A DNA stretch of 64,000 nucleotides, from NCBI GenBank assembly GCA_965277805.1, contig OZ255842.1, positions 4,480,001-4,544,000 of the forward strand. Direction: 5' to 3'. The notes beneath the pieces are model-generated. The model worked only from the letters and a program-made list of their open reading frames with translations, ran no database searches and was not told where the DNA came from. The DNA comes from Candidatus Lustribacter sp. (GTDB lineage Bacteria > Vulcanimicrobiota > Vulcanimicrobiia > Vulcanimicrobiales > Vulcanimicrobiaceae). The position numbers were made by a program, and so were the translations under genes. Below, one piece after another: positions 21,102-33,584 of this stretch; position 1 is the stretch's first letter; each line of letters opens with the position of its first letter.

Positions 21102-22828
21102 AACACGTCATCACCGTGGCGCAACGTATGGATCAAATCGGTCTCGCGCTCGTGGGCCGGACCACTTGCGGCCGTACGCCGAGCCAGGTCTGCCCGGTGC
21201 TCCTCCAATTCGTCGAGCCGCCGCTGCGCATCTCGAAGGGTACGCAAAAGCTCCTCGCCCTCGCGGTCGAGCGAGCTGCGCTCCTGTTCGAATGCAAGTG
21301 CTTCCGAGATCCGGCTGGCAGCATCAGATTGTTCACGCTCAACACGGGCAGTCCCGACAAGAACGTCGCCACCTGAGGAATAAACATCGGCCAAGTCAAT
21401 CCCGTCGCTCGAAAGCAACAGCTCGCGCATTTGATTCGAATGGGCGGTGCCGCGCGATTTAACGATCGTCAAGGTCCGATTGCGCTCGCCGCCACGATTG
21501 GCAAAGCTCAAATGGATCCATGTGTCCGCGATTGTCGATACGCGGGTCGGCGTAGATTCAAGGTCGCCCGCCGGGGGAGGCGCGACGGCAGTAAAGATTG
21601 CCGTGATATTACGTGATTTCATCAGAACGACCAGACGCTCCGTCGTGGCATCGGCGAGATCGCTACCACCAGCCTTAACCAAGGCCGAAATCGGATCGAT
21701 GACAACTCGAGTAGGCTCGTGTGTATCTAGCAGGCGTTCGATGGCCAGATAGTGGTCGTCAGCAATGATACTGCCGGCGGAAAACGACGCCGATACAAAC
21801 AATCCCGCGCTCATGTCATCTGCGACGTCTAATCCAACGGAGCGCACGTCGATCGTCACCTGGTTGGCCGGTTCGTCGAAACCGATGAAGAGGGCACGTT
21901 CTCCGTTACTGGTCCCAGCCTTAAGAAATGCCATACTGAGTGTTGTTTTCGATGTGCCTGGCAGTCCGGAAAGCAAGACCGTGGTACCTTGCCGGTAGCC
22001 GCCGAGCAGCATTCGATCGAGTCGCTCTACCCCGGTGGACAGGCGCCCCAACGGCGACTGAAAGATGGTGTTTGTACGCGTCGGCGTGTTCAAAACCCGA
22101 ATACCGAAGTGCGAGATGTTATATGCGTGCGACCCGCCGAGAAACGGTGCACCCCGCAATTTCATCACGGAAAGCGTGCGCCGTGAAAGTTCGCCGACCA
22201 GCGTTGTTTTAAGGCGGATGACCGCATCCGCGGCGTATTCGACGACGTCGAACCTTGGTGGGAGGCGCTGATCGCTCTCGTCCGCTTTCACCGTCAGTAG
22301 CGCCGTCAAGTTAGCTCCGGTCAGCCAATTGATCAGTCGAATGATTTCGCGTCGCCGGATCGACGGATTTTCCGAAATAGCGAACAGCGCATCGAGACCG
22401 TCGATTGCGATTCTCTTAATACCCTGCTTCGTGACGATCGATGAAGCGATCGATATGAGACCACTCAAATCGAACTCACCAGCTTCAACGGCGTCCTCCG
22501 AAAGCCGGCCGTCCAATAATTGGACGCCGTTTCCGAGTACGTCCGCAAGCGGCCAGGATGCCGCGGGGTAGTTATGCTTGAGCGCGTCCGGCGATTCCTC
22601 AAAAGTAATCATGAGGCCAGGCTCGCCTAATGAAGCAGCGCCGTTAACCAGGTACTGCATTGCGAGGACCGTCTTACCGCTGCCCGGTTCGCCCACGATA
22701 ATGGTCGTGCGACCGGACGGAAAGCCGCCGCACAACACGGCGTCCAAGCCCTTAATCCCGCTCGCAGCAGTCGCTGATACTCCGCGTTCGGCGGCCCATT
22801 CGCTGCGGGAGGCGTCTTCATGCGGCAT
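21098..22828 (-). CDS. kaiC: KaiC double RecA-like domain ATPase/kinase with C-terminal coiled-coil extension
   Basis: CI: GEPGSGKT, TFEES, IAIDGLD, VMKLRG; CII: STGVERLDRML, GLPGTSKT, VVIDPIS, phosphosite VSTIADTW, IVKSRGTAHSNQMRE. Confidence 0.93.
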   Translation of the reverse strand: MPHEDASRSEWAAERGVSATAASGIKGLDAVLCGGFPSGRTTIIVGEPGSGKTVLAMQYLVNGAASLGEPGLMITFEESPDALKHNYPAASWPLADVLGNGVQLLDGRLSEDAVEAGEFDLSGLISIASSIVTKQGIKRIAIDGLDALFAISENPSIRRREIIRLINWLTGANLTALLTVKADESDQRLPPRFDVVEYAADAVIRLKTTLVGELSRRTLSVMKLRGAPFLGGSHAYNISHFGIRVLNTPTRTNTIFQSPLGRLSTGVERLDRMLLGGYRQGTTVLLSGLPGTSKTTLSMAFLKAGTSNGERALFIGFDEPANQVTIDVRSVGLDVADDMSAGLFVSASFSAGSIIADDHYLAIERLLDTHEPTRVVIDPISALVKAGGSDLADATTERLVVLMKSRNITAIFTAVAPPPAGDLESTPTRVSTIADTWIHLSFANRGGERNRTLTIVKSRGTAHSNQMRELLLSSDGIDLADVYSSGGDVLVGTARVEREQSDAASRISEALAFEQERSSLDREGEELLRTLRDAQRRLDELEEHRADLARRTAASGPAHERETDLIHTLRHGDDVL

Positions 22829-25460
22829 AAGTCACCCCCATGCGACGCAACATCTCTTCAAAAGACTCGGGGCGCGCAACCAAAAAGCCTTGACCGTAGC
22901 GGCAACCATGCTTTAGCAGCCACGCCGCTTGGGCTTCGGTCTCAATGCCCTCTGCGAGCGTAGCGAACCCAAAACGATCAGTGATTCGCAGCAACATTTC
23001 GGCGACCGCAGTATCACGTTCGTCGTCCGGTAAACCGGTAATAAACGATCGATCGATTTTGATCACGTCAACTCGCAAGTCTTTCAGATACGAAAGGGAC
23101 GAATAGCCCGTTCCGAAGTCATCAATGGCGACCTTGATTCCCCATTTACGAAACAGATCGATCGTGCTCATCGAACGTTCTACGTTCTCCATTGCAGCCG
23201 TCTCCGTGACCTCGATCCCAAGGTGATCCACGAGCTTGCCGTCGCCGCGAATCGCCTCGTTCAACTCCGCGATGAAGGCGACATCGTCAAGCATTTGGGC
23301 TGCGACATTGAAATAAATCCGGGCGCCGGGCGGCAGTGAAAGAGCGCTCGAGACGTCATGCACAACCCGCCGAAAGACCCAGCGAGTAACCGCGGCAATC
23401 AAACCATTGCGCTCAGCGAAGTCGATGAATTCCGAGGGCGGCAACCGGCCACGCTCTGGATGGTCCCATCTGACAAGGGCTTCGGCGCCGATGATCGCCC
23501 GCGTCGTCAGATCAAACGTCGGCTGATATTCAAGTAGAAGCTGGTCTTGGGATATAGCATTGCTCAACTCGACCACGCGCAAGTGAGCTTCCTCGAATAT
23601 TTCTTCCATGTGAGCATCGAACATCATCGCGCTCGAACCGCCACGGTCTTTCGCAACCGTGAGCGCGACATCTGCCTTTCGCATCAGGTCCTCGGCACTC
23701 GCACCATCTCGTGGATAGCATGCTCCGCCGAAGGAGGCACCGATCGATAGAAGTTGTGTTCCGTCGCGGTCGCCGGTATGAAAGGGGGCATGAAAGAGGT
23801 CACCGTAGCGCTGAAGTTCGGCCGTCTGACTAGCAAGTTGACTAGCGCGAATCAGCAGCCCGAATTCATCAGCACTCATTCGTGCCACCAAATCGAGTGA
23901 AGAAACGGACGTGAGTGCCGCTGACACCTCAACGAGGACCTCGTCCCCTATCTGATGCCCATGACGTTCATTGATGCGCCGGAACTCGTCGACGTCGACA
24001 AATGCTAGCGTGAACGCTCTGCCCGTTCGAATCTCATCGCGCACAGCTTTGCGGAATTGAACTCGATTCTCGAGTCCGGTGAGAGCGTCGTGTTCGATTT
24101 GAAACTGAATGCGTTCGAATTGCTGCTGCTGCTTAAAACTGCTTGCAAAGAATGAAGCGACGACATCCACATACGCAAGGTCGTCATTTACGAATGGCTC
24201 GTCAAGCATCTTTTCAGGAGACGCAAAGCCGAGGAAATACGTTACTCGACCAATATTAACCGGCGTCCCAATGAAGCTACGCAAGTCAAGAGCGTCGGAA
24301 AGCCGCCCGCTGTCGTCTACTAAGCTCAAATCATTCCATGCCGTCGTGTGCCCTGCGACGAAGAGGCTGTTCTGGAGCATGAAGGCGCGCGGAAACCGCG
24401 CGCCGGCATGGACTGTCGTCGCGAAGCCGCCCGGATCGGCCTCAGATCCGCGCCACGACGTCGCGTCGAAGACGATTTCCTCGCCGTCGAGATGACTCAG
24501 GGTCCCGAACATGCACATCCCAGGTCGCATGGCGGCCGTCGCGATGCCTAAAATCGTTTCGTACTGATCTCCATCGGGCCGCGCTACGTACGAGGCGATC
24601 TCCCACACAGCGCGGATCCGACCCGCGCGTTTGGAGGACTCGTCCTCAACCGCGCTGAGCCGGTATCGCGACATTACAAGCGTTCGTAGCGACGCAACGA
24701 GAACAAACGCGCCGCCGAGCAGCATTAGGGCGCGGCTGGCATAAAAGGCGTCGCTGAAACGCACGGTTAGCGGAGCCAGAAGCGTATCGAGCAAGAGAGC
24801 CGTTAGCGACAGTGTTAGCGCTCGATCGATGATATTCGGCGTTCGCGCAGTAAACGTGCGGATGGCCACCACCGCCAAAAATGCCGCCACCACCGGACCG
24901 ACTTTGCTGCTCGCGACACCGGCCAGCGACGGTTCGCTCACGAGTGGTACCAGCGCGCCTAAGATAAGCGCGGCTAGAACACCAAGTGCGAAGAGAAATG
25001 CGGCGAAAAGGCTGGAGTATATCTGAAAGCGTCGCGTCGGACGGACGTCTTTCTCCACATCACGAGTGAGGATATAAAACAGGGCACCGATACCAGCTGT
25101 GAAGTGCCAGATAATGATGATCCAAACGCCGGTTTGCTGTGGCGACCAGAAGATCGGCGGCGCCGAAGGTAGCAGGGCCGAAACGAACAGCATGATGGTC
25201 ATGAGGCCGGCGTTGACTGCGAACGCAAGGGCCAACACGAATATTGCACGACGTTCCGCCGAATGGCGCCACGTGGCGAAGAGCACAAGTGCCGTAGCGG
25301 CGTAGCCGAGGGCCGTCGCGAACGAGATGACCGGACCGATTGGGGCCAACCGTAGATTCATTGAAGCTGGGAAGTGCGCCATCGCGCCGACGACGGCTGC
25401 GATTCCATACACTAGGACAAGCCCGGGGCCAATTTGGACCAGCCGGCGGGGCAAAGTCAC
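22818..25460 (-). CDS. MASE4-like membrane sensor - GAF - GGDEF (degenerate) - EAL protein
   Basis: Multi-TM N-terminus with QQTGVWIIIIWH; HDALTGLENR; SADEF; EALVRW, DDFGTGYSSL, IKIDRSF, AEGIE. Confidence 0.88.
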   Translation of the reverse strand: MTLPRRLVQIGPGLVLVYGIAAVVGAMAHFPASMNLRLAPIGPVISFATALGYAATALVLFATWRHSAERRAIFVLALAFAVNAGLMTIMLFVSALLPSAPPIFWSPQQTGVWIIIIWHFTAGIGALFYILTRDVEKDVRPTRRFQIYSSLFAAFLFALGVLAALILGALVPLVSEPSLAGVASSKVGPVVAAFLAVVAIRTFTARTPNIIDRALTLSLTALLLDTLLAPLTVRFSDAFYASRALMLLGGAFVLVASLRTLVMSRYRLSAVEDESSKRAGRIRAVWEIASYVARPDGDQYETILGIATAAMRPGMCMFGTLSHLDGEEIVFDATSWRGSEADPGGFATTVHAGARFPRAFMLQNSLFVAGHTTAWNDLSLVDDSGRLSDALDLRSFIGTPVNIGRVTYFLGFASPEKMLDEPFVNDDLAYVDVVASFFASSFKQQQQFERIQFQIEHDALTGLENRVQFRKAVRDEIRTGRAFTLAFVDVDEFRRINERHGHQIGDEVLVEVSAALTSVSSLDLVARMSADEFGLLIRASQLASQTAELQRYGDLFHAPFHTGDRDGTQLLSIGASFGGACYPRDGASAEDLMRKADVALTVAKDRGGSSAMMFDAHMEEIFEEAHLRVVELSNAISQDQLLLEYQPTFDLTTRAIIGAEALVRWDHPERGRLPPSEFIDFAERNGLIAAVTRWVFRRVVHDVSSALSLPPGARIYFNVAAQMLDDVAFIAELNEAIRGDGKLVDHLGIEVTETAAMENVERSMSTIDLFRKWGIKVAIDDFGTGYSSLSYLKDLRVDVIKIDRSFITGLPDDERDTAVAEMLLRITDRFGFATLAEGIETEAQAAWLLKHGCRYGQGFLVARPESFEEMLRRMGVTYAA

Positions 25461-26254
25461 GCAACGACTTTCAGGACGAGCGCAGCGACATCGTCGTGGA
25501 GCTGACGCGATGCGAACTCGTAGGCATAATCGACGATCGCCTCCGCCTGGCGCTCGGCGCTGCGTGCCGCATGTCTCTGCAGTATCTCGATGACCGCGTC
25601 CGCACCTAAGAATCTGCGCTGTTCGTCGCGCGCCTCCGAAAAACCGTCGGTAAATGCCGCAATCGCATCGCCGGGCCGTATTGCGATCGTGCCTTGATCG
25701 AACCCGGCGTCGCTATCCATCAGCCCTATGATCGGGCCGGTCGCCGGAAGTTGCTGTGCACCCAAGGGTGCAAAGAGATATGCCGCTTCGTGACCTGCTG
25801 AAACGTAGTTCAGACTTCGCCGATCGGGTGGTATGATCGCAAAGAAGAGCGTTGCGAAGAACTCTTCGTCACCCTCGAAATCGCTATTCTCAATACAAAG
25901 TCGATTTAGCGCCTGGACGCAACCGCGCGCATCGAGACCAAGTGATGCGTAGCCGCGCAGCGCGTGTTTGGCAAGTCCGGCATTACGTGCCGCTGGAATG
26001 CCATGCCCCGTGATGTCCACGACGGAGAGTGCGGTTGAACCGCCTCCGAAAAAAAAGACGTCGACGACATCGCCCCCGTAGTGGAAGTCGCCCACGGCAC
26101 CGCGATACGCGCGTCCAACGTCAAGACCGGGCAGCTGGCGGACGCTCGGCCGGTAGAGCGCCTCCACAATACGTCGCATTTCACCCTGCAAATGGCTTTC
26201 GGCCACGGGCTCATCGGCCGATTCTCCAGTGAGGCGACGCGCCTGGAAGCTCAT
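25457..26254 (-). CDS. Stand-alone SpoIIE/RsbU-like PP2C Ser/Thr phosphatase
   Basis: GGDVVD, VVDITGHG, FFATLF, SAGHE, FTDGFSEARD, DDVAALVL; ATG 26254 overlaps the crp-like gene stop (ATGA). Confidence 0.9.
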   Translation of the reverse strand: MSFQARRLTGESADEPVAESHLQGEMRRIVEALYRPSVRQLPGLDVGRAYRGAVGDFHYGGDVVDVFFFGGGSTALSVVDITGHGIPAARNAGLAKHALRGYASLGLDARGCVQALNRLCIENSDFEGDEEFFATLFFAIIPPDRRSLNYVSAGHEAAYLFAPLGAQQLPATGPIIGLMDSDAGFDQGTIAIRPGDAIAAFTDGFSEARDEQRRFLGADAVIEILQRHAARSAERQAEAIVDYAYEFASRQLHDDVAALVLKVVA

Positions 26255-26985
26255 TCCCGTATAGACATTTCGAATGCCATCATGCAGGCTTGATAGCATT
26301 CGCATGCGGTGACGCGTAGGAGTTCTAGGTCAAGTATCGTGACGATCCCGCGAGAATACGAGATCGCTCCAGCGCGTTGAACGGCCTCCGTCGCTTCAGA
26401 AACACTTGACCGTGGAACGGCGAGCATGATCGCAAGGAATTCGTCGCTAAGCTTGAACGTCGGCTCGTCAACTCGGTCTGCAGTCATCGCGAGCCATCGC
26501 GCACATCGCTGAGTCACCGAGTGCTTCGCGTTGCACGCCGCGTATTGCTGCGCGCTGAAAAGCGCCGCGCGAACACTCAAATGCATACGCCGCGCGAATA
26601 CCGCGCTGCTTGCCATTCGAGATGCGAATCGTTCGATAGACATTCGCCCGACGGAGCCGCGAACCTGACAAAACGAAGAGCGCTGCGCGCGGGCCGAAGC
26701 GATAACAGCGTCGTACTCAACGAAACCTTCTCTTCCGACGGTCCCAACTTCAATGCTTTCGCCACCCTTGAGCGTGGCCACAACCGACAGCACGGCATTG
26801 ATGGGAAAGTCAACAAAGTCTAGAACGTCATCGGCGGCATGCGTATGCCGATGGGCCTCTAGTGTCACAATCGTAAGATCGGCAAGCAAATCGACGCGAT
26901 CGTTATACGGTAACGCGTCGAGCAGGCGATTTCCGCTGCGAATATTGCCCGCGGCGTCAGGGGATATGGTGGAACCGCGAGGCAC
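26251..26985 (-). CDS. Crp/Fnr-family transcriptional regulator
   Basis: NRLLDALP, EVGTVGREG, ACNAKHSVTQRCARWL, EFLAIMLAVPRSSVS, ACECY. Confidence 0.9.
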   Translation of the reverse strand: MPRGSTISPDAAGNIRSGNRLLDALPYNDRVDLLADLTIVTLEAHRHTHAADDVLDFVDFPINAVLSVVATLKGGESIEVGTVGREGFVEYDAVIASARAQRSSFCQVRGSVGRMSIERFASRMASSAVFARRMHLSVRAALFSAQQYAACNAKHSVTQRCARWLAMTADRVDEPTFKLSDEFLAIMLAVPRSSVSEATEAVQRAGAISYSRGIVTILDLELLRVTACECYQACMMAFEMSIRE

Positions 26986-28190: not shown

Positions 28191-29081
28191 TTAGGGTCGT
28201 GTTTCCGAAACAGTTATGGCCGCGCCGCGATATTCGCGTGCTGCCGCCGGGCGCGCCCCATGGCACGTCAGTTGAGCGGGCGATTGCGTCTCTGCAAGAA
28301 TCGTGACGTCCACATGACCGAACGGTGCTGAGAGACGCACGGTCGCAGTGTTTCCGTCCACCCGCTCCAAGGTCTCCACCGCAAACGCATCGACCGTGTC
28401 GATAGACAACATCTCGTGAGCGTAAACGATTGCGGCTTGTGCGATGGACGGAAGGCCGATACGCCCACGTTGATGCGCCATGAGAAGTCGCCCGTCATCG
28501 GCGCAATCGGCCAGGGCCGACGCTGCCGACGCGGGGACGCGCCCGTACAAAACACCGGATGGCAAAACGAGCACATTCGCCGCAAAACGGTCGCCGCCCA
28601 GGTGCGTTGTTTCCCAAGCCCGGCCCGGCCGAGCACGATCGAGCGCCTCGACGAGGGGCCGGCCGCGCAGAGCGCAGCACGGATCATGCCGCCCGTGCGT
28701 GCATACCAAGAACAGCGGTGCCGTATCAATCGTTGACGGTGGTCTCAGCGGGAAGCCTGCCTCAAGTTCGGCAGCGAAATACGCTAGGTCGTCGGTGCGC
28801 CACCATTGGACCTTCCCCTCATCGGCGATCCCGACGTGATAGCCGCCGTCCGGCATACCGTGCCCGTGCTCGCCGGGCCGCCGAATGGCTTGCAGTCGCA
28901 TGCCCGCACGCGCCCCCGCGATATCGAGGCGCCTCGCAACGGCCGGGTCGCATCGGCTCTCGAGTAAACCACGCGGTCCCCAAGGGCCGGGCTGATGGAT
29001 CAGCAATACGCGTGATTGAGGCGGCGCGGTGCCGATCATCGAGTCTCCCCGCGCATCCGCCTCTGCTGAACAAAGGATCAC
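28191..29081 (-). CDS. Sucrase/ferredoxin-like protein (thioredoxin-like 2Fe-2S)
   Basis: LLIHQPGPWG, LVCTHGRHDPCCALRG, WETTHLGGDRFAANVLVLPSG.LYGRV; GTG 29081 overlaps the JmjC gene stop (GTGA). Confidence 0.85.
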   Translation of the reverse strand: MILCSAEADARGDSMIGTAPPQSRVLLIHQPGPWGPRGLLESRCDPAVARRLDIAGARAGMRLQAIRRPGEHGHGMPDGGYHVGIADEGKVQWWRTDDLAYFAAELEAGFPLRPPSTIDTAPLFLVCTHGRHDPCCALRGRPLVEALDRARPGRAWETTHLGGDRFAANVLVLPSGVLYGRVPASAASALADCADDGRLLMAHQRGRIGLPSIAQAAIVYAHEMLSIDTVDAFAVETLERVDGNTATVRLSAPFGHVDVTILAETQSPAQLTCHGARPAAAREYRGAAITVSETRP

Positions 29082-30271
29082 GCCGGAACGAGAACTCCGG
29101 CACGCACCAGATCCGCGAGCACATGCACGCACGCTTCAATGTCACTGCCCGGCAACGTTTCGGCAGCGACGACCGATCCGGTTATTGCGCTGCGAACCAC
29201 ATGAAGAGCGGTATTCGGGAAACGGATGTCTTTGTCGGGCAGGTGCAGGATGCACTGCTCATCGCCAAAGTCGAGCCTTACATGTAAGCCTGGTCGCAAA
29301 CGAAGACGCGTAGCGGGTACCAATGACGTCGCCACGACGAATTGAGCGAGCGGGGAAAGCGGCTCCGGCCGCGTTGCGGCGTCGAGTGCCCGGCCAATGC
29401 CGGCCGTCACCTTTGCAACGTCGATGCGCGCTAGAGCGGCGCGCAAGGCCTCGACCGTGGCTGCAAATTCGTAATCGAGCGCTGGTGCTTCCCTGAAATT
29501 CACGCCCGCGGGCAGCGATCCACGCAGCGAGACGTCCTCTGAAAGCGTTGCGAAAATCTGTTCCACGAGCGCCATGCGCGTTATGGGATGGATACCGATC
29601 GTCAGATGGCCGGAAATCTCATCCAGCGAAGTCGCCGCATGAATATAACCACGCGGTAAATACAGGACGTCGCCTGCCTCCAGAATGATGTCGAGAAGCG
29701 GCAACTCGCGCGCACGAGCAACAACCGCGGACTGCCGCTTCTGCCAAGATTGCTCGCGCAAGGGTGAAGTCAGGACCGGTTGATGGACCCGCCAATGCTT
29801 TCTTCCCGCGAATTGTAGCAGAAACACGTCGTGGACATCGTAGTGCGGCGTGAGGCCCTGGCTCATCGGCGGTGTGACATAGGCATTCACCTGCGCCGGG
29901 TGTCCCAATTGCTCAGTCAGGGCGACGGCGAAGATCTCAATAGGCTCCCACGTGCGATGCAGGCCCTGCAGCACGATCGTCGCGCCGGCGCTGAATTCCG
30001 CGAGCACCTTATCATCAGCTATTTGATCGGAAATCTCGGCGCCGGCACCACCGCTGCGCGTGTAGCGAGCAGACGGGATGACATTGCCATCGCGCGTCAT
30101 CCGCAAAAACGGCGTGCGCAAGCCGCGGCGCGAAAGTAATTCGTCTACCGCTTCACTATTGAACAGATCGGCGAAGCTCTCGTTCTGCGCCGAGGAACGG
30201 TGAAGTCGCGGCGCAGAACCCCAGTGTTCCGCGTTGAATCTGGCGAGAGGTAATCCGGTGAGGCGTTGCAC
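29078..30271 (-). CDS. JmjC/cupin_4 2OG-Fe(II) oxygenase (YcfD/ROXA/NO66-like protein hydroxylase); start codon uncertain
   Basis: QVNAYVTP, HYDVHDVF (HxD), GRKHWRV, GDVLYLPRGYIHAA (distal His), HLTIG. Confidence 0.88.
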   Translation of the reverse strand: MQRLTGLPLARFNAEHWGSAPRLHRSSAQNESFADLFNSEAVDELLSRRGLRTPFLRMTRDGNVIPSARYTRSGGAGAEISDQIADDKVLAEFSAGATIVLQGLHRTWEPIEIFAVALTEQLGHPAQVNAYVTPPMSQGLTPHYDVHDVFLLQFAGRKHWRVHQPVLTSPLREQSWQKRQSAVVARARELPLLDIILEAGDVLYLPRGYIHAATSLDEISGHLTIGIHPITRMALVEQIFATLSEDVSLRGSLPAGVNFREAPALDYEFAATVEALRAALARIDVAKVTAGIGRALDAATRPEPLSPLAQFVVATSLVPATRLRLRPGLHVRLDFGDEQCILHLPDKDIRFPNTALHVVRSAITGSVVAAETLPGSDIEACVHVLADLVRAGVLVPA

Positions 30272-30280
30272 CGGATTACC
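30249..30280 (-). promoter_or_regulatory. Perfect 12-bp stem-loop overlapping the probable JmjC start codon
   Basis: GGTAATCCGGTG-N8-CACCGGATTACC. Confidence 0.5.
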
Positions 30281-30311
30281 ACCGCCCGTTAATGGTCTGG
30301 CGCTCGCGAGG

Positions 30312-30554
30312 CTAGGCGCCTTTGTCAGCCCCGCCATCAGCCCCGCCGTCCGGGTCGGCGCCTGCATCCGCTCCGCCGTCGGCTCCGCCGTCCGGATCGG
30401 CACCGGCGTCTGCGCCGCCGTCGGCGCCACCGTCAGGATCGGCTCCGGTGTTCGCGCCGCCGTCTGCGCCGCCGTCGTGGACACCGGGTGTTCCGGACGC
30501 ACCGCCGTCTTCCGGACCCTCGGTGCCGGCATCTAAATCGTCATCATCAGCCAT
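30312..30554 (-). CDS. 80-aa Asp/Gly/Ala repeat peptide, candidate precursor or substrate of the adjacent JmjC enzyme
   Basis: GAGGT SD then ATG 30554; MADDDDLDAGTEGPEDGGASGTPG-VHDGGADGGANTGA-(DPDGGADGGADAGA)2-DPDGGADGGADKGA. Confidence 0.75.
   Translation of the reverse strand: MADDDDLDAGTEGPEDGGASGTPGVHDGGADGGANTGADPDGGADGGADAGADPDGGADGGADAGADPDGGADGGADKGA
30315..30482 (-). repeat. Four tandem 42-bp coding repeats (14-aa unit)
   Basis: Units differ mainly at synonymous positions in the peptide frame. Confidence 0.85.
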
Positions 30555-30666
30555 GGACTTTACCTCAAGATTGGGAAAGGAATCGATATCGAAGCAGCAG
30601 GCACTCCGTTCGCCATAGCTCGATGCCCGTGAACTCATGCTGTGAAACTCGTGAGGAGTCGAATTC

Positions 30667-31194
30667 TTGGACATCACACAACTCATTCTGGACGACCATC
30701 ACGAACAACGGCGTCTCTTTGCGATTCTCGAGCAAATCGACGCGGCGGACGTCGGTGCGCTCGAAGCGATCTGGCGACGGCTAGCAACGTTTCTCGAGGT
30801 CCATGCGCTGGCTGAGGAAGACATCTTCTATCCGGCACTCCTCCGTCTCGGCGCCGGTACGGTAAAGGTAGCGAGCGCGGAAGACGAGACCGAAGATGCG
30901 ATTAAGGATCACAACGAGATTCGTGATGCCGTTGCGTCTGCCAATCGCCTGAAGGTTGGGACCGAACAATGGTACGTTGCCGTTGCTGCGGCAAACGAAG
31001 CGAACGGTGATCATATGGCGGAAGAGGAGCGCGAAGGTTTGACAGACCTGCGTGCTCACGCAGATCTTGCGACGCGGCACGATCTAGGCGTGCGCTTTGC
31101 CGTCTTTGAAGCCGAGCACGTTACCGGGGTGCGTGCCGTCGACAGAGATCCCAAGGCCTACATCGCGGATCATTCAGCGCCCAGCACGTCGTGA
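30667..31194 (+). CDS. Hemerythrin/HHE cation-binding domain protein
   Basis: GAGGAG SD; DDHHEQR, EVHALAEEDIFYPAL, KDHNEIR, DHMAEEE. Confidence 0.88.
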   Translation: MDITQLILDDHHEQRRLFAILEQIDAADVGALEAIWRRLATFLEVHALAEEDIFYPALLRLGAGTVKVASAEDETEDAIKDHNEIRDAVASANRLKVGTEQWYVAVAAANEANGDHMAEEEREGLTDLRAHADLATRHDLGVRFAVFEAEHVTGVRAVDRDPKAYIADHSAPSTS

Positions 31195-31230: not shown

Positions 31231-32166
31231 TCAACACGAGTGACTAAGCGGGTGGTGCCGCATCTCGCGCATGTGCTCGACGACGGTACGCGCCGGAAAT
31301 CGTGGTTCACCACCCTCGGGAAGACACGTCGGCACGCATTCCACGATTTCGTCGTAGCCCGGATCGAAGAACGTCGGCATCGAGTAGCGATCGCGGCCGC
31401 TCGTGTTACGAGTGACCCGGTGCATCGGCGAGCGGTAGGCACCGCCGGTATAGCGGACCATCAACTCACCGAGAATGATAACGAACGTGTCCGCGATTGG
31501 TGGTATTGAGTGCCACACGCGGTCTGCGTCGCGGATCTCGAGGCCGCCGACGTCGTCCTGGGCGAGGATCGTGAGCATACCCCAGTCAAAATGCGCGCCG
31601 GCGCCGCGCGCTGATGCGGAGGCGCCGGCAAGTGACGGATAGCGGAAGAGCTGCGTATACACCAGCGGCTCGCGCAGCGCAGCGTCGAAGAACGTTGCCG
31701 GCAGATCGAGCGATTGCGCAAGAACGTGCGCAAGGCGGCACCCGACGCGCGTCATCGCCTCAACCCAGGCTTCCATCTGTGCGCGAAAATGCAGGGGCAT
31801 TGACGGCCAGCGATTCGTGCCGGTGTTGGGATAGTCGGCAACCACATGAAGGTGATCCGGCGGAAGATCCGGCCCCATGATGAAGCCTTCTTTGAGATCG
31901 CCCGGTGCATCGGCGTCGATCGTCTGGGTGCCGAGTGGTTCGTAGCCGCGAAACGCGGCTCCGGGCCTGACCGCGATCGCATGTTTTACCGCGTCGTCCA
32001 AGGCAAAAAATTCGCGCGCCAGATCGAAGTGGGCGTCGACGAGCGCGCCGGGCACCCCGTGACCGGCGAGATAGAAAGCGCCGATGGATCTTCCCGCTTC
32101 TCGCACCTTCGCCGCTGCGCCGGGCGCGCGGAGATCCACCGTCGCGAGTGGAGCAGTCTCAATCAT
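31231..32166 (-). CDS. Isopenicillin N synthase-family 2OG-Fe(II) oxygenase
   Basis: GAFYLAGHGV, GDLKE, GAHFDWGMLTIL (HxD), HRV, RYSMPTF (RxS). Confidence 0.9.
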   Translation of the reverse strand: MIETAPLATVDLRAPGAAAKVREAGRSIGAFYLAGHGVPGALVDAHFDLAREFFALDDAVKHAIAVRPGAAFRGYEPLGTQTIDADAPGDLKEGFIMGPDLPPDHLHVVADYPNTGTNRWPSMPLHFRAQMEAWVEAMTRVGCRLAHVLAQSLDLPATFFDAALREPLVYTQLFRYPSLAGASASARGAGAHFDWGMLTILAQDDVGGLEIRDADRVWHSIPPIADTFVIILGELMVRYTGGAYRSPMHRVTRNTSGRDRYSMPTFFDPGYDEIVECVPTCLPEGGEPRFPARTVVEHMREMRHHPLSHSC

Positions 32167-33584
32167 GCCAGTGCCGCGCGCGCGTCGGCAACGCTTCGAA
32201 ATTCAGCCACTTCCGCCATTAAAGCAATGATGCCGCGCAGGGACGGCCCCGACCGGGCGCCCAGGGCAATTTTGAACACGCCGTTGCGCGCTTCGTTCTC
32301 CAATTCGATCGCCTCGCAGCGGTGACCGCGAAAGCCGAAGCTGCCGCCGCGGTCGAGGACTAGACCTCGCTTGCGGGCGGCGCCGATCACGACGTCTTCG
32401 AGCTCGGCGTAGCGGGCCATAGAGTCGTCACGAAGGTGGAAGAAAACGAACGGCCCTTGTGCCCAAGGCAAGCGCCGCGGATCGAGCGAGGGATGGGCAA
32501 CAGTTTCGAAGAGCCCGTCCGTCGCGACGGCAGCCACTGCTTCCGCCAACGCCGCGTTGTGCCTGTAGAGTGCCGACGTATACTCATCCAATGCCGCCGG
32601 ATCGAGAAAAAACGGGACATCGAGCAAAGCGAGGGCGTCGAACGTCAACGCAGTGCCATTGAGCCGGCGCAGCATTCGGAACCGCTCCTCCACGCCGTCG
32701 AGGCTTTCGGCGTGCGTCGCCGGCGCGTAGATCGAGACGATGCCCACATTTGCCAGTTCGAGCCCGGCTTGATCGAGTTTGAGTCCGGAGTTGGCCTGTA
32801 TCACGAGCGGCAACTGCGGTGTCTCAGCAAGAATTCGCCTCATCGGAAGCGTTGGGCCCACGAGGGTACTGTCGATGACGACGATGGGCGGCTCTGAACA
32901 CTGCGCAGCTGCGTGCATCGCTTCCCGAACGTCAAACGGCCGCAGCCATGGGTCATAGATGATCGGCTCGATGAACACGACGTCGGGCGCGCCGCTCGCA
33001 AGGGCCGCGTGAAAGTCGGCGTCCGAATTCGTGATGAGCGCGCTGAAGCCGCCCAGTGAGAGCAATTCCCTCGTTTCGAAATACGCCACGGCGGCCAACA
33101 GAGCGGATGACTCACCGTACGGCATTCGCGATCTCAAGAACTGCGCGATGCTCGAGAGCGCGGCCATTCCGCTGGAAAAGAGCAGATGACGTACCGACCA
33201 TCCGCTGGGCGCGGTGCGGTACGCTTGCAGTCGCGCATCGAGGGGGCTCGATTCGAGGGACCGCTCGTAGCCGTAATCGATGATGACCTGAGACGGCAAC
33301 AGCTTGCCGTCGCCGGCGAACGGCGAGCGGTAGGTGGCGTCGGCGTACTCGTGCGCCGTGCCCATCCACGCACGGCGCAACTTGGCCGTGAGCCGATCGA
33401 GTTTTCGTTCGCCATCCGCCGTCTCGAGTGACGCTTGGGCCGCCAATTCGATCACGTTTTGATACCATGCGCCGGCGATCGCTCGGCGTCGCTCCGCCAC
33501 TGCGGGCATCGCATCGGCCACCGCAACGAGCCGATCGCATTCGGCGGCTAACTCATGGGTCTCACTGTGCATTACGCCGATCAC
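32163..33584 (-). CDS. PLP-dependent enzyme of Cys/Met-metabolism (cystathionine gamma-synthase/lyase-like) fold with N-terminal extension
   Basis: LFSSGMAALS, AYFET, VFIEP, VIDSTL, SGLK (candidate PLP Lys), GSFGF; overlaps the oxygenase start (ATGA). Confidence 0.68.
   Translation of the reverse strand: MIGVMHSETHELAAECDRLVAVADAMPAVAERRRAIAGAWYQNVIELAAQASLETADGERKLDRLTAKLRRAWMGTAHEYADATYRSPFAGDGKLLPSQVIIDYGYERSLESSPLDARLQAYRTAPSGWSVRHLLFSSGMAALSSIAQFLRSRMPYGESSALLAAVAYFETRELLSLGGFSALITNSDADFHAALASGAPDVVFIEPIIYDPWLRPFDVREAMHAAAQCSEPPIVVIDSTLVGPTLPMRRILAETPQLPLVIQANSGLKLDQAGLELANVGIVSIYAPATHAESLDGVEERFRMLRRLNGTALTFDALALLDVPFFLDPAALDEYTSALYRHNAALAEAVAAVATDGLFETVAHPSLDPRRLPWAQGPFVFFHLRDDSMARYAELEDVVIGAARKRGLVLDRGGSFGFRGHRCEAIELENEARNGVFKIALGARSGPSLRGIIALMAEVAEFRSVADARAALA

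Follow-up and report, generated by a model that had tools for sequence, protein, structure and literature searches.

A stretch of 64,000 nt from the genome of Candidatus Lustribacter sp. (positions 4480001-4544000 of its only contig, C1, or OZ255842.1; hereafter the window) carries a self-contained operon of three genes arranged head to tail on the minus strand, which encode a small acidic repeat protein rich in Asp, Gly and Ala (the peptide), an oxygenase of the JmjC_2 family predicted to depend on Fe(II) and 2-oxoglutarate (2OG), and a Suc_Fer-like protein (Table 1). The linkage of these genes is conserved in both directions, whether the search starts from the oxygenase or from the peptide. 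We favour, with about even confidence, the reading that the peptide is the dedicated substrate of the oxygenase, with Asp as its likeliest target. The source genome (G000) has 5.53 Mb in one contig and a G+C content of 64%, and the closest database relatives bear names that suggest Eremiobacterota.

Gene order is conserved around the oxygenase and around the peptide

A scan for relatives of the oxygenase with one genome per species returned at least 575, of which the 80 best-matching loci were retained (4 of the Eremiobacterota type and 76 from Actinomycetota). An open reading frame (ORF) of Asp/Gly/Ala repeats lay directly upstream of the oxygenase gene, on the same strand, in 77 of these 80 loci, and in the remaining three the upstream DNA extended for only 15-123 nt. 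A Suc_Fer-like gene was found downstream in 75 of the 80 loci, within 221 nt in 73 of those 75. Five loci gave no Suc_Fer match: L031 and L082 have 120 and 1,428 nt of downstream DNA, respectively, and the other three have 4 kb and are therefore true misses with the query used. In a separate phylum-wide sample of Eremiobacterota both neighbours were kept in all seven orthologue loci (7/7). The preliminary description of this DNA had mentioned similar gene trios in actinobacterial genomes, rightly, and had set the conservation of the two neighbours as a check, which the counts of 77/80 upstream and 75/80 downstream bear out.

The association was equally apparent from the peptide side. A profile built from 21 peptides (A2) matched 34 of 201 sampled Actinomycetes genomes, about a sixth, many of them cultured, and detected only the cassette copy in the genome of Marmoricola endophyticus. 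The oxygenase gene lay directly downstream in 28 of 30 loci fetched through the peptide, the contigs of the other two ending 122 and 167 nt after the peptide gene; the proportion becomes 27 of 29 when L130, which is one of the 28 and comes from a genome flagged as unpublished, is left out.

The remaining genes of the window did not follow the cassette. Among the 80 loci the hemerythrin gene recurred once and the epimerase, second 2OG oxygenase, PLP (pyridoxal phosphate) enzyme, Crp-like regulator and PP2C phosphatase never (0/80), leaving a functional tie to these neighbours unsupported. De novo clustering of neighbours revealed no further common partner, the next clusters reaching no more than 25 of 81 loci, and the menaquinone and pyrophosphatase genes found near many actinobacterial copies (up to 25/81) were taken as lineage synteny. 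No protease, recognition-domain, export or immunity gene was detected among the conserved neighbours (a cluster of ABC ATPases reached only 7/81), in keeping with the earlier remark that a protease and a dedicated exporter are missing, and PADLOC assigned none of the three proteins to an anti-phage defence family at E ≤ 0.01.

The small ORF encodes a member of a family of acidic repeat proteins

The three minus-strand ORFs delimited previously were confirmed in the sequence, as was the claim that the 80-aa peptide has a Shine-Dalgarno sequence of its own. The peptide gene runs from an ATG (30554-30552) to a TAG (30312-30314), and its product, composed of 26 Gly, 20 Asp and 17 Ala among 80 residues, reads MADDDDLDAGTEGPEDGGASGTPGVHDGGADGGANTGA followed by three DPDGGADGGADxGA units. 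Tandem Repeats Finder reported a 42-nt period (3.6 copies, 81% matches) over 30324-30476. Three of the four 14-aa units described earlier are clean and the fourth is only partial. The separate 24-residue leader proposed alongside them did not stand, this N-terminus being made up of a conserved acidic M-x-x-DDD motif and the first family unit, EGPxDGGAxGxPGxHDGGADGGA. The acidic motif takes up 4-10 residues, with repeat units starting immediately after it, and the window peptide comprises this acidic start, one canonical unit and its own Pro-containing variant.

No other similar ORF was found in the genome, the peptide ORF containing 16 GGAD/DGGA motifs against five in the next best, a Gly-rich ORF of ~7,979 aa. 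Being the only one of its kind in 5.53 Mb, the peptide ORF is more than a chance occurrence. The Gly-rich ORF, at G000:C1:3459179-3483115 (-), has ~7,979 stop-free codons and encodes a repeat protein with units such as AQSIGGGGGNGGFS.

Family figures were derived from 67 peptides, after dropping seven whose tails switch frame or whose long start is wrong, together with four startless fragments. These peptides have 58-183 residues (median 86), a median net charge of -17 and an overall composition of 37% Gly, 19% Ala and 18% Asp, with Cys in none of the 67 and a DGGADG core in every one (67/67, median 4 copies). Many begin with M-x-x-DDD-I/M-T-T and many end in ...DGGA or ...DGSA; the unit EGPADGGAxGxPGxHDGGADGGA is common, and repeat number varies among relatives while the unit is kept. 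The peptide had no match in Pfam, NCBIfam or PADLOC and none in a PDB profile search at E ≤ 10, and the nearest clusters in the protein atlas are unnamed entries ('hypothetical protein') of 74-91 aa, mostly from Actinomycetota. In five of the 77 loci (L019, L029, L034, L042 and L066) the Asp/Gly/Ala frame turns into a Pro/Thr/Ala/Val frame within the repeat, before the stop, which reflects either errors made in assembling the repeat or genuine variants by strand slippage.

A sister genome of the same genus (G003) carries the same cassette, with an oxygenase that is 93% identical and a peptide set apart by the deletion of one codon and a single Asp/Glu exchange. Over 76 codons the two peptide genes differ at 8 bases, every one of them in the third position of its codon (synonymous in 7 cases, Asp/Glu in 1). 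Between the oxygenase genes there are 47 synonymous and 28 non-synonymous codon changes. Asp, Gly and Ala are encoded by mixed synonymous codons across loci. Because all eight differences between the peptide genes sit at the third codon position, the comparison identifies the small ORF as a real gene whose frame is under purifying selection.

Two other readings of this DNA, one that takes the repeat for GC-rich, non-coding tandem DNA and one that assigns it to a longer oxygenase starting at ATG 30532, could draw on an oxygenase frame that is open back to this ATG across the peptide gene (484 aa), and on public records of several relatives (P0002, P0003, P0005 and P0007) in which the oxygenase is called at 481-494 aa with Pro/Thr/Ala-rich N-termini, in the wrong frame. 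However, the same G003 differences that conserve the Asp/Gly/Ala frame alter many residues in the overlapping extension, and at three of the other seven Eremiobacterota loci with an orthologue the open oxygenase frame measures only 403, 403 and 415 aa, most orthologues having ~402 aa. With its extension unconserved in G003 and closed in relatives, the 484-aa oxygenase is best explained as an artefact of stop-free GC-rich repeats, and we consider both readings very improbable. We also rejected a fusion of peptide and oxygenase through programmed frameshifting, because the open oxygenase frame of several relatives ends a short way upstream. If the oxygenase instead began at ATG 30337, a possible alternative start, its gene and that of the peptide would share 26 nt. 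Since the oxygenase is often over-extended in public annotation, the peptide gene has been systematically missed.

The upstream ORF could also be a translated leader that tunes the expression of an ordinary ribosomal hydroxylase of the YcfD/NO66 type. Such a role would suit the family membership of the oxygenase, and a distance of 8-15 nt from the peptide stop to the oxygenase match in some relatives points to coupled translation. Yet a protein of this length range, built of conserved units, present in two phyla and provided with its own Shine-Dalgarno sequence far exceeds what a regulatory leader needs, and both the synonymous substitutions in the peptide frame and the retention of the unit as repeat number varies speak against a leader, which we regard as quite improbable.

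The oxygenase resembles protein hydroxylases of the NO66 type

The oxygenase matched Pfam JmjC_2 (PF08007; E 2.6e-27, 95.3 bits against a cut-off of 22) and also Cupin_8. Its HxD...H motif is intact, as the preliminary description had noted: H143, D145 and H211 (iron triad), along with K158 (2OG lysine, in a G-x-K-x-W strand), are invariant in 17/17 aligned orthologues and align with human NO66 at its HYD...H iron site and its GRKLW and FIH motifs. The family carries such a triad on a double-stranded beta-helix, and with this triad and lysine the protein is, by sequence, a JmjC_2 enzyme of the ribosomal oxygenase (ROX) type, of predicted activity. A PDB profile search retrieved NO66 (E 6.8e-29), MINA53 (1.1e-24), a Rhodothermus enzyme (9.3e-13) and E. 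coli YcfD (3e-8), and the fold search ranked the relatives in the same order. The AlphaFold2 (AF2) model, with a predicted local distance difference test score (pLDDT) of 75.3, had NO66 as its best Foldseek match (4y33, E 9.7e-22, 454 columns); the alignments to NO66 and to the R. marinus enzyme (443 columns) gave template modelling (TM) scores of only 0.4-0.5, from a model of pLDDT 75. As the nearest relatives by sequence and fold (NO66, MINA53 and YcfD) are all protein hydroxylases, the comparison supports the prediction of an active oxygenase. None of the three cassette proteins is named by NCBIfam. The genome also holds a second JmjC_2 paralogue (29% identity), with no acidic ORF upstream, that could serve the ribosomal role.

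Outside the iron site, the most conserved part of the oxygenase is an Arg-rich stretch (residues 47-90, with R49, R52, R57 and R72 invariant). Residues 71-90 form an invariant loop, T-R-x-G-G-A-G-A-x-I-x-D-Q-x-A-D-D, which is like the GGADGGA repeat of the peptide and is modelled with pLDDT below 50. We speculate that the Arg-rich stretch with its GGAGA loop is a peptide-binding element; the loop could also act as a pseudo-substrate or undergo self-hydroxylation. A prediction of the complex from the oxygenase alignment (A1) and the peptide alignment (A2), run twice without controls, scored 0.00 in both runs and says nothing either way.

The third protein may bind a metal cluster through an unusual ligand set

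The third protein matched Pfam Suc_Fer-like (PF06999; E 1.3e-15, 58.4 bits against a cut-off of 34.9), which agrees with its earlier description as sucrase/ferredoxin-like. Its AF2 model (pLDDT 87.7) had as best fold match the Aquifex thioredoxin-like [2Fe-2S] ferredoxin (1f37; probability 0.99, E 0.1, TM(target) 0.65), with no fold match for the C-terminal beta domain (residues ~220-278). A PDB sequence search with this protein gave chance-level matches only, the best being chorismate synthase over 35 residues (E 6.6e-4), and a match to uL16 (E 0.023) was regarded as noise. In Apd1/Aim32 ferredoxins the cluster is ligated by two Cys and by the two His of an HxGGH motif (bis-His set). Among 73 sequences of the third protein, C113, H115, D119, C121, C122, H146, G148 and G149 are invariant (73/73), H118 is found in 72 and C259 in 70, and position 150 is occupied by Asp (49), Cys (14) or Glu (10). 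This position is never His, implying a ligand set unlike HxGGH and suggesting that the third protein holds a metal cluster in a manner different from the bis-His set of Apd1/Aim32.

A stress-type promoter motif precedes the operon

The motif GTTT-N14-17-GGG[ACT]A occurred in 13 of 75 upstream regions, against a mean of 0.19 and a maximum of 2 in shuffled sequences. None of 74 control stretches taken from within the oxygenase gene had it (0/74), and its relaxed form, GTT[TA], reached 25 of the 75 regions. It was present in all six Eremiobacterota-type loci of the 75-region set and in 5 of 7 loci of the phylum sample. The motif resembles what we take to be the SigB/SigF-type consensus and, from this consensus match only, appears to be a stress-type promoter. 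SigH/R-type, sigma-70 (TTGAC-N-TAnnnT), IdeR half-site and extended -10 motifs were each found in 0 of the 75 upstream regions, and a sigma-70 scan of the window region returned 0 sites. A weak hint of transcription comes from a single 177-nt contig of a soil metatranscriptome that matches positions 28576-28752, in the third gene, without a difference. Matches of 30-40 nt between sequencing runs and the repeat stem from other GC-rich sequences, and neither the parts of the stretch that the RNA run leaves uncovered nor the runs that hold a small share of it were counted as evidence.

A model in which the peptide is the substrate of the oxygenase

In the model that we favour, the first gene would provide a small, disordered and strongly acidic protein of DGGADGG-type units, and the NO66-like JmjC Fe(II)/2OG oxygenase encoded by the second would take this protein as its dedicated substrate, most likely hydroxylating side chains of the repeat, with C-3 of Asp as the best candidate. 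The thioredoxin-like iron-sulfur protein encoded by the third gene would aid the oxygenase, for instance by keeping its iron reduced or by supplying iron, and the operon would be switched on from the SigB/SigF-like promoter. The product seems to remain inside the cell, because no export or protease gene travels with the cassette. The likeliest target is Asp, since no other functionalised residue occurs in every peptide. His, as a universal target of the NO66-like kind, was ruled out, since only 46 of the 67 peptides contain it; the 21 without His leave Asp, Gly or Ala as the universal target, which is consistent with the Asp idea, without proving it.

Several points weigh against this model. 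We infer that the peptide is the substrate and is bound and modified, as we do the residue concerned, the role of the third protein and the function of the product. Conserved gene order is a sign of a functional link and not of an enzyme-substrate relation. Those members of the subfamily that have been characterised use basic ribosomal proteins, not acidic peptides, as substrates. As 2OG oxygenases have no stoichiometric need of a ferredoxin, the part assigned to the third protein is guesswork. A Suc_Fer-like gene was not found with our query in 5 of the 80 loci, three of them with 4 kb of downstream DNA; the strict promoter motif covers only 13 of the 75 upstream regions and the relaxed one 25; and expression rests on one 177-nt contig from one soil RNA library, within the third gene, where carry-over of DNA is possible.

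The acidic protein could instead be a partner that is not modified, either a buffer or chaperone for iron or calcium, serving to load or protect the oxygenase along with the iron-sulfur protein, or an inhibitor or decoy by which a ribosomal oxygenase is held away from its basic target until required. Conserved gene order fits such a partner equally well. An Asp content of 18%, the lack of Cys and the median charge of -17 would suit cation binding by the unmodified protein, the oxygenase and the third protein are both predicted iron proteins, the known relatives of the oxygenase act on ribosomal proteins, and a hemerythrin gene stands divergent from the cassette in the window and in G003. That gene, however, was found in only 1 of the 80 other loci, the second JmjC_2 paralogue is available for the ribosomal role, and a plain metal buffer would have no need for so sharply conserved a core as the DGGADG retained in 67/67 peptides. 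On this evidence a non-substrate partner is possible though rather unlikely.

The cassette was probably acquired from Actinomycetota

The peptide found in 34/201 Actinomycetes genomes contrasts with a cassette that is rare in Eremiobacterota: among 40 relatives of the source genome only G003 has an orthologue of the oxygenase, and the phylum-wide sample yielded orthologues in 8 of 251 genomes, from one family and 5 of 91 genera. In a quick maximum-likelihood tree, built from the 80 best matches and with a root that rests on a long-branch paralogue, the six Eremiobacterota-type oxygenases formed one group (Shimodaira-Hasegawa-like approximate likelihood ratio test, SH-aLRT, 99); this group adjoined Allobranchiibius and Marmoricola (99), and a larger group of actinobacterial sequences enclosed it (98). 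The Allobranchiibius and Marmoricola copies have the same type of peptide unit and the same promoter motif as the Eremiobacterota-type loci. As the window oxygenase nests among sequences of Actinomycetota, horizontal transfer is likely, and the simplest reading of the tree is that the whole cassette probably moved from Actinomycetota to this lineage of Eremiobacterota. The nesting of the Eremiobacterota copies also implies that the three genes move and stay together as a unit.

Layout of the locus and neighbouring genes

Table 1 Features of the cassette; positions are those of the window.
Feature	Position (strand)	Description
SigB/SigF-like promoter motif	30624..30648 (-)	GTTT-N16-GGGCA, consensus match; ends 69 nt 5' of the peptide start
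Shine-Dalgarno	30563..30566 (-)	GAGG, 8 nt 5' of the peptide ATG, from sequence
Acidic Asp/Gly/Ala repeat protein gene	30312..30554 (-)	80 aa, MADDDDLDAG..., 4 DGGADGG cores, net charge ~-21
JmjC_2 (ROX-type, NO66-like) Fe(II)/2OG oxygenase gene	29078..30271 (-)	397 aa from GTG 30271, Pfam PF08007
Predicted iron and 2OG site codons	29639..29845 (-)	H143 29843-29845, D145 29837-29839, K158 29798-29800, H211 29639-29641
Hairpin	29079..29104 (-)	11 pairs and T-rich tail, coinciding with the stop codon of the oxygenase, preceding the third gene
Suc_Fer-like (Apd1/Aim32-type thioredoxin-like ferredoxin family) protein gene	28191..29039 (-)	282 aa from ATG 29039, Pfam PF06999
Candidate metal-cluster ligands, third protein	28590..28703 (-)	C113, H115, H118, D119, C121, C122 ... 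H146-x-G-G-D150

The GTGA overlap between the oxygenase gene and the third gene that had been reported earlier is present in the sequence (GTG 29081-29079 over the oxygenase TGA, 29080-29078), yet this GTG is probably not the true start: the orthologues begin at the downstream ATG 29039, which has the orthologue consensus MLGTA... and GGGGAG upstream, so that the two genes are probably separated by a 38-nt gap. The hairpin before the third gene might reduce read-through into it; two hairpins with a T-rich tail were counted in the region against 2.1 expected in shuffles, and this one is not significant alone.

A hemerythrin-domain gene (30667-31194 (+), Pfam E 3e-12) is divergent from the peptide gene across a common 112-nt intergenic region, an arrangement found in the window and in G003; in NCBIfam its product also matches 'PA2171 family ribosome-binding persister protein', though weakly and far below threshold (23 bits, cut-off 190). 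A second 2OG-Fe(II) oxygenase (31231-32166 (-), DIOX_N and 2OG-FeII_Oxy) overlaps by 4 nt the gene of a 473-aa protein (32163-33584 (-)) with only a weak match to Cys/Met PLP enzymes (E 0.0049); the pair looks like a separate two-gene small-molecule operon and accompanies the cassette in none of the 80 loci. On the other side, a run of signalling genes (22818-26985 (-)) includes an 880-aa membrane protein with GGDEF- and EAL-like motifs (by eye), whose gene overlaps that of a SpoIIE/PP2C phosphatase (25457-26305), followed by a Crp-like helix-turn-helix regulator (26251-26985). The phosphatase would fit a partner-switching stress-sigma system and may relate to the SigB/F-like promoter motif.

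Significance and comparison with known systems

Literature searches on the repeat motif, on ribosomal oxygenases, JmjC and Actinobacteria, and on JmjC and ribosomally made peptides with post-translational modifications (RiPPs), covering papers without their supplementary files, found no paper on the cassette, and the JmjC/RiPP literature that they returned concerns only unrelated systems. The peptide family is unnamed in Pfam and NCBIfam. We advance tentatively, as a doubtful but testable proposal, that the cassette may represent a new class: an intracellular, ribosomally made, hydroxylated poly-Asp repeat protein that would act as a stress-induced chelator of iron or calcium, made by a NO66-type oxygenase with a dedicated non-ribosomal substrate (a bacterial first), with an unusual Cys/His/Asp-ligated iron-sulfur protein as its partner in redox or iron handling, in a module mobile between phyla. 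If so, hydroxylation of many Asp residues under stress would turn a disordered peptide into a high-affinity chelator of iron or calcium, a protein-borne analogue of the beta-hydroxy-Asp siderophores. To our knowledge, no bacterial relative of human NO66 and MINA53 has been described as anything but a ribosome hydroxylase. Were a widespread subgroup to have an acidic substrate encoded by a gene of its own, this would extend the known scope of the class and offer a simple system of two or three proteins in which to study its chemistry. With the cassette in about one-sixth of the sampled Actinomycetes, many of them cultured, the hypothesis is directly testable at the bench.

The closest known systems are the ROX enzymes (NO66/RIOX1, MINA53/RIOX2, YcfD/RoxA and the YcfD-like enzyme of Rhodothermus marinus), which belong to the same Pfam family and have the same HxD...H and 2OG lysine; the fold match, at TM scores of only 0.4-0.5, may extend over the catalytic domain, the helical dimerisation domain and the winged-helix-like C-terminal domain, with only ~20-22% identity to NO66 in the fold alignment. 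ROX enzymes hydroxylate His or Arg of basic ribosomal proteins that are encoded elsewhere (Arg of uL16, His of uL2 or uL15), and we know of none accompanied by the gene of an acidic peptide of its own or by one of the Suc_Fer-like type. Other 2OG oxygenases beta-hydroxylate Asp or Asn, namely FIH in ankyrin repeats, AspH in EGF domains and CinX in cinnamycin; their chemistry is that proposed for the peptide, but they belong to other enzyme subfamilies and act on structured substrates. The third protein shares with the Apd1/Aim32 ferredoxins the Suc_Fer-like family, a thioredoxin-like ferredoxin core (in the model), a Cys pair and His-x-Gly-Gly, and differs from them in having Asp, Cys or Glu in place of the second His, an extra C259 and an extra C-terminal beta domain.

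The term 'RiPP-like', used in the preliminary description, is apt in that a gene-encoded peptide adjoins the enzyme in searches from either side, and inapt in that the cassette has no leader/core split, recognition element or protease. JmjC enzymes do act on gene-encoded peptides in two such pathways, BipG as an ornithine hydroxylase in biphenomycin biosynthesis (PMC12707348) and CzlI as a Phe hydroxylase in that of curacozole (PMC11575548). Both resemble the present cassette in pairing a JmjC Fe/2OG enzyme with a peptide encoded nearby, but their clusters are large and include cyclases, proteases and exporters, and their targets are short cores; the present cassette has three genes, its peptide is a long acidic repeat, and it has no conserved protease or exporter.

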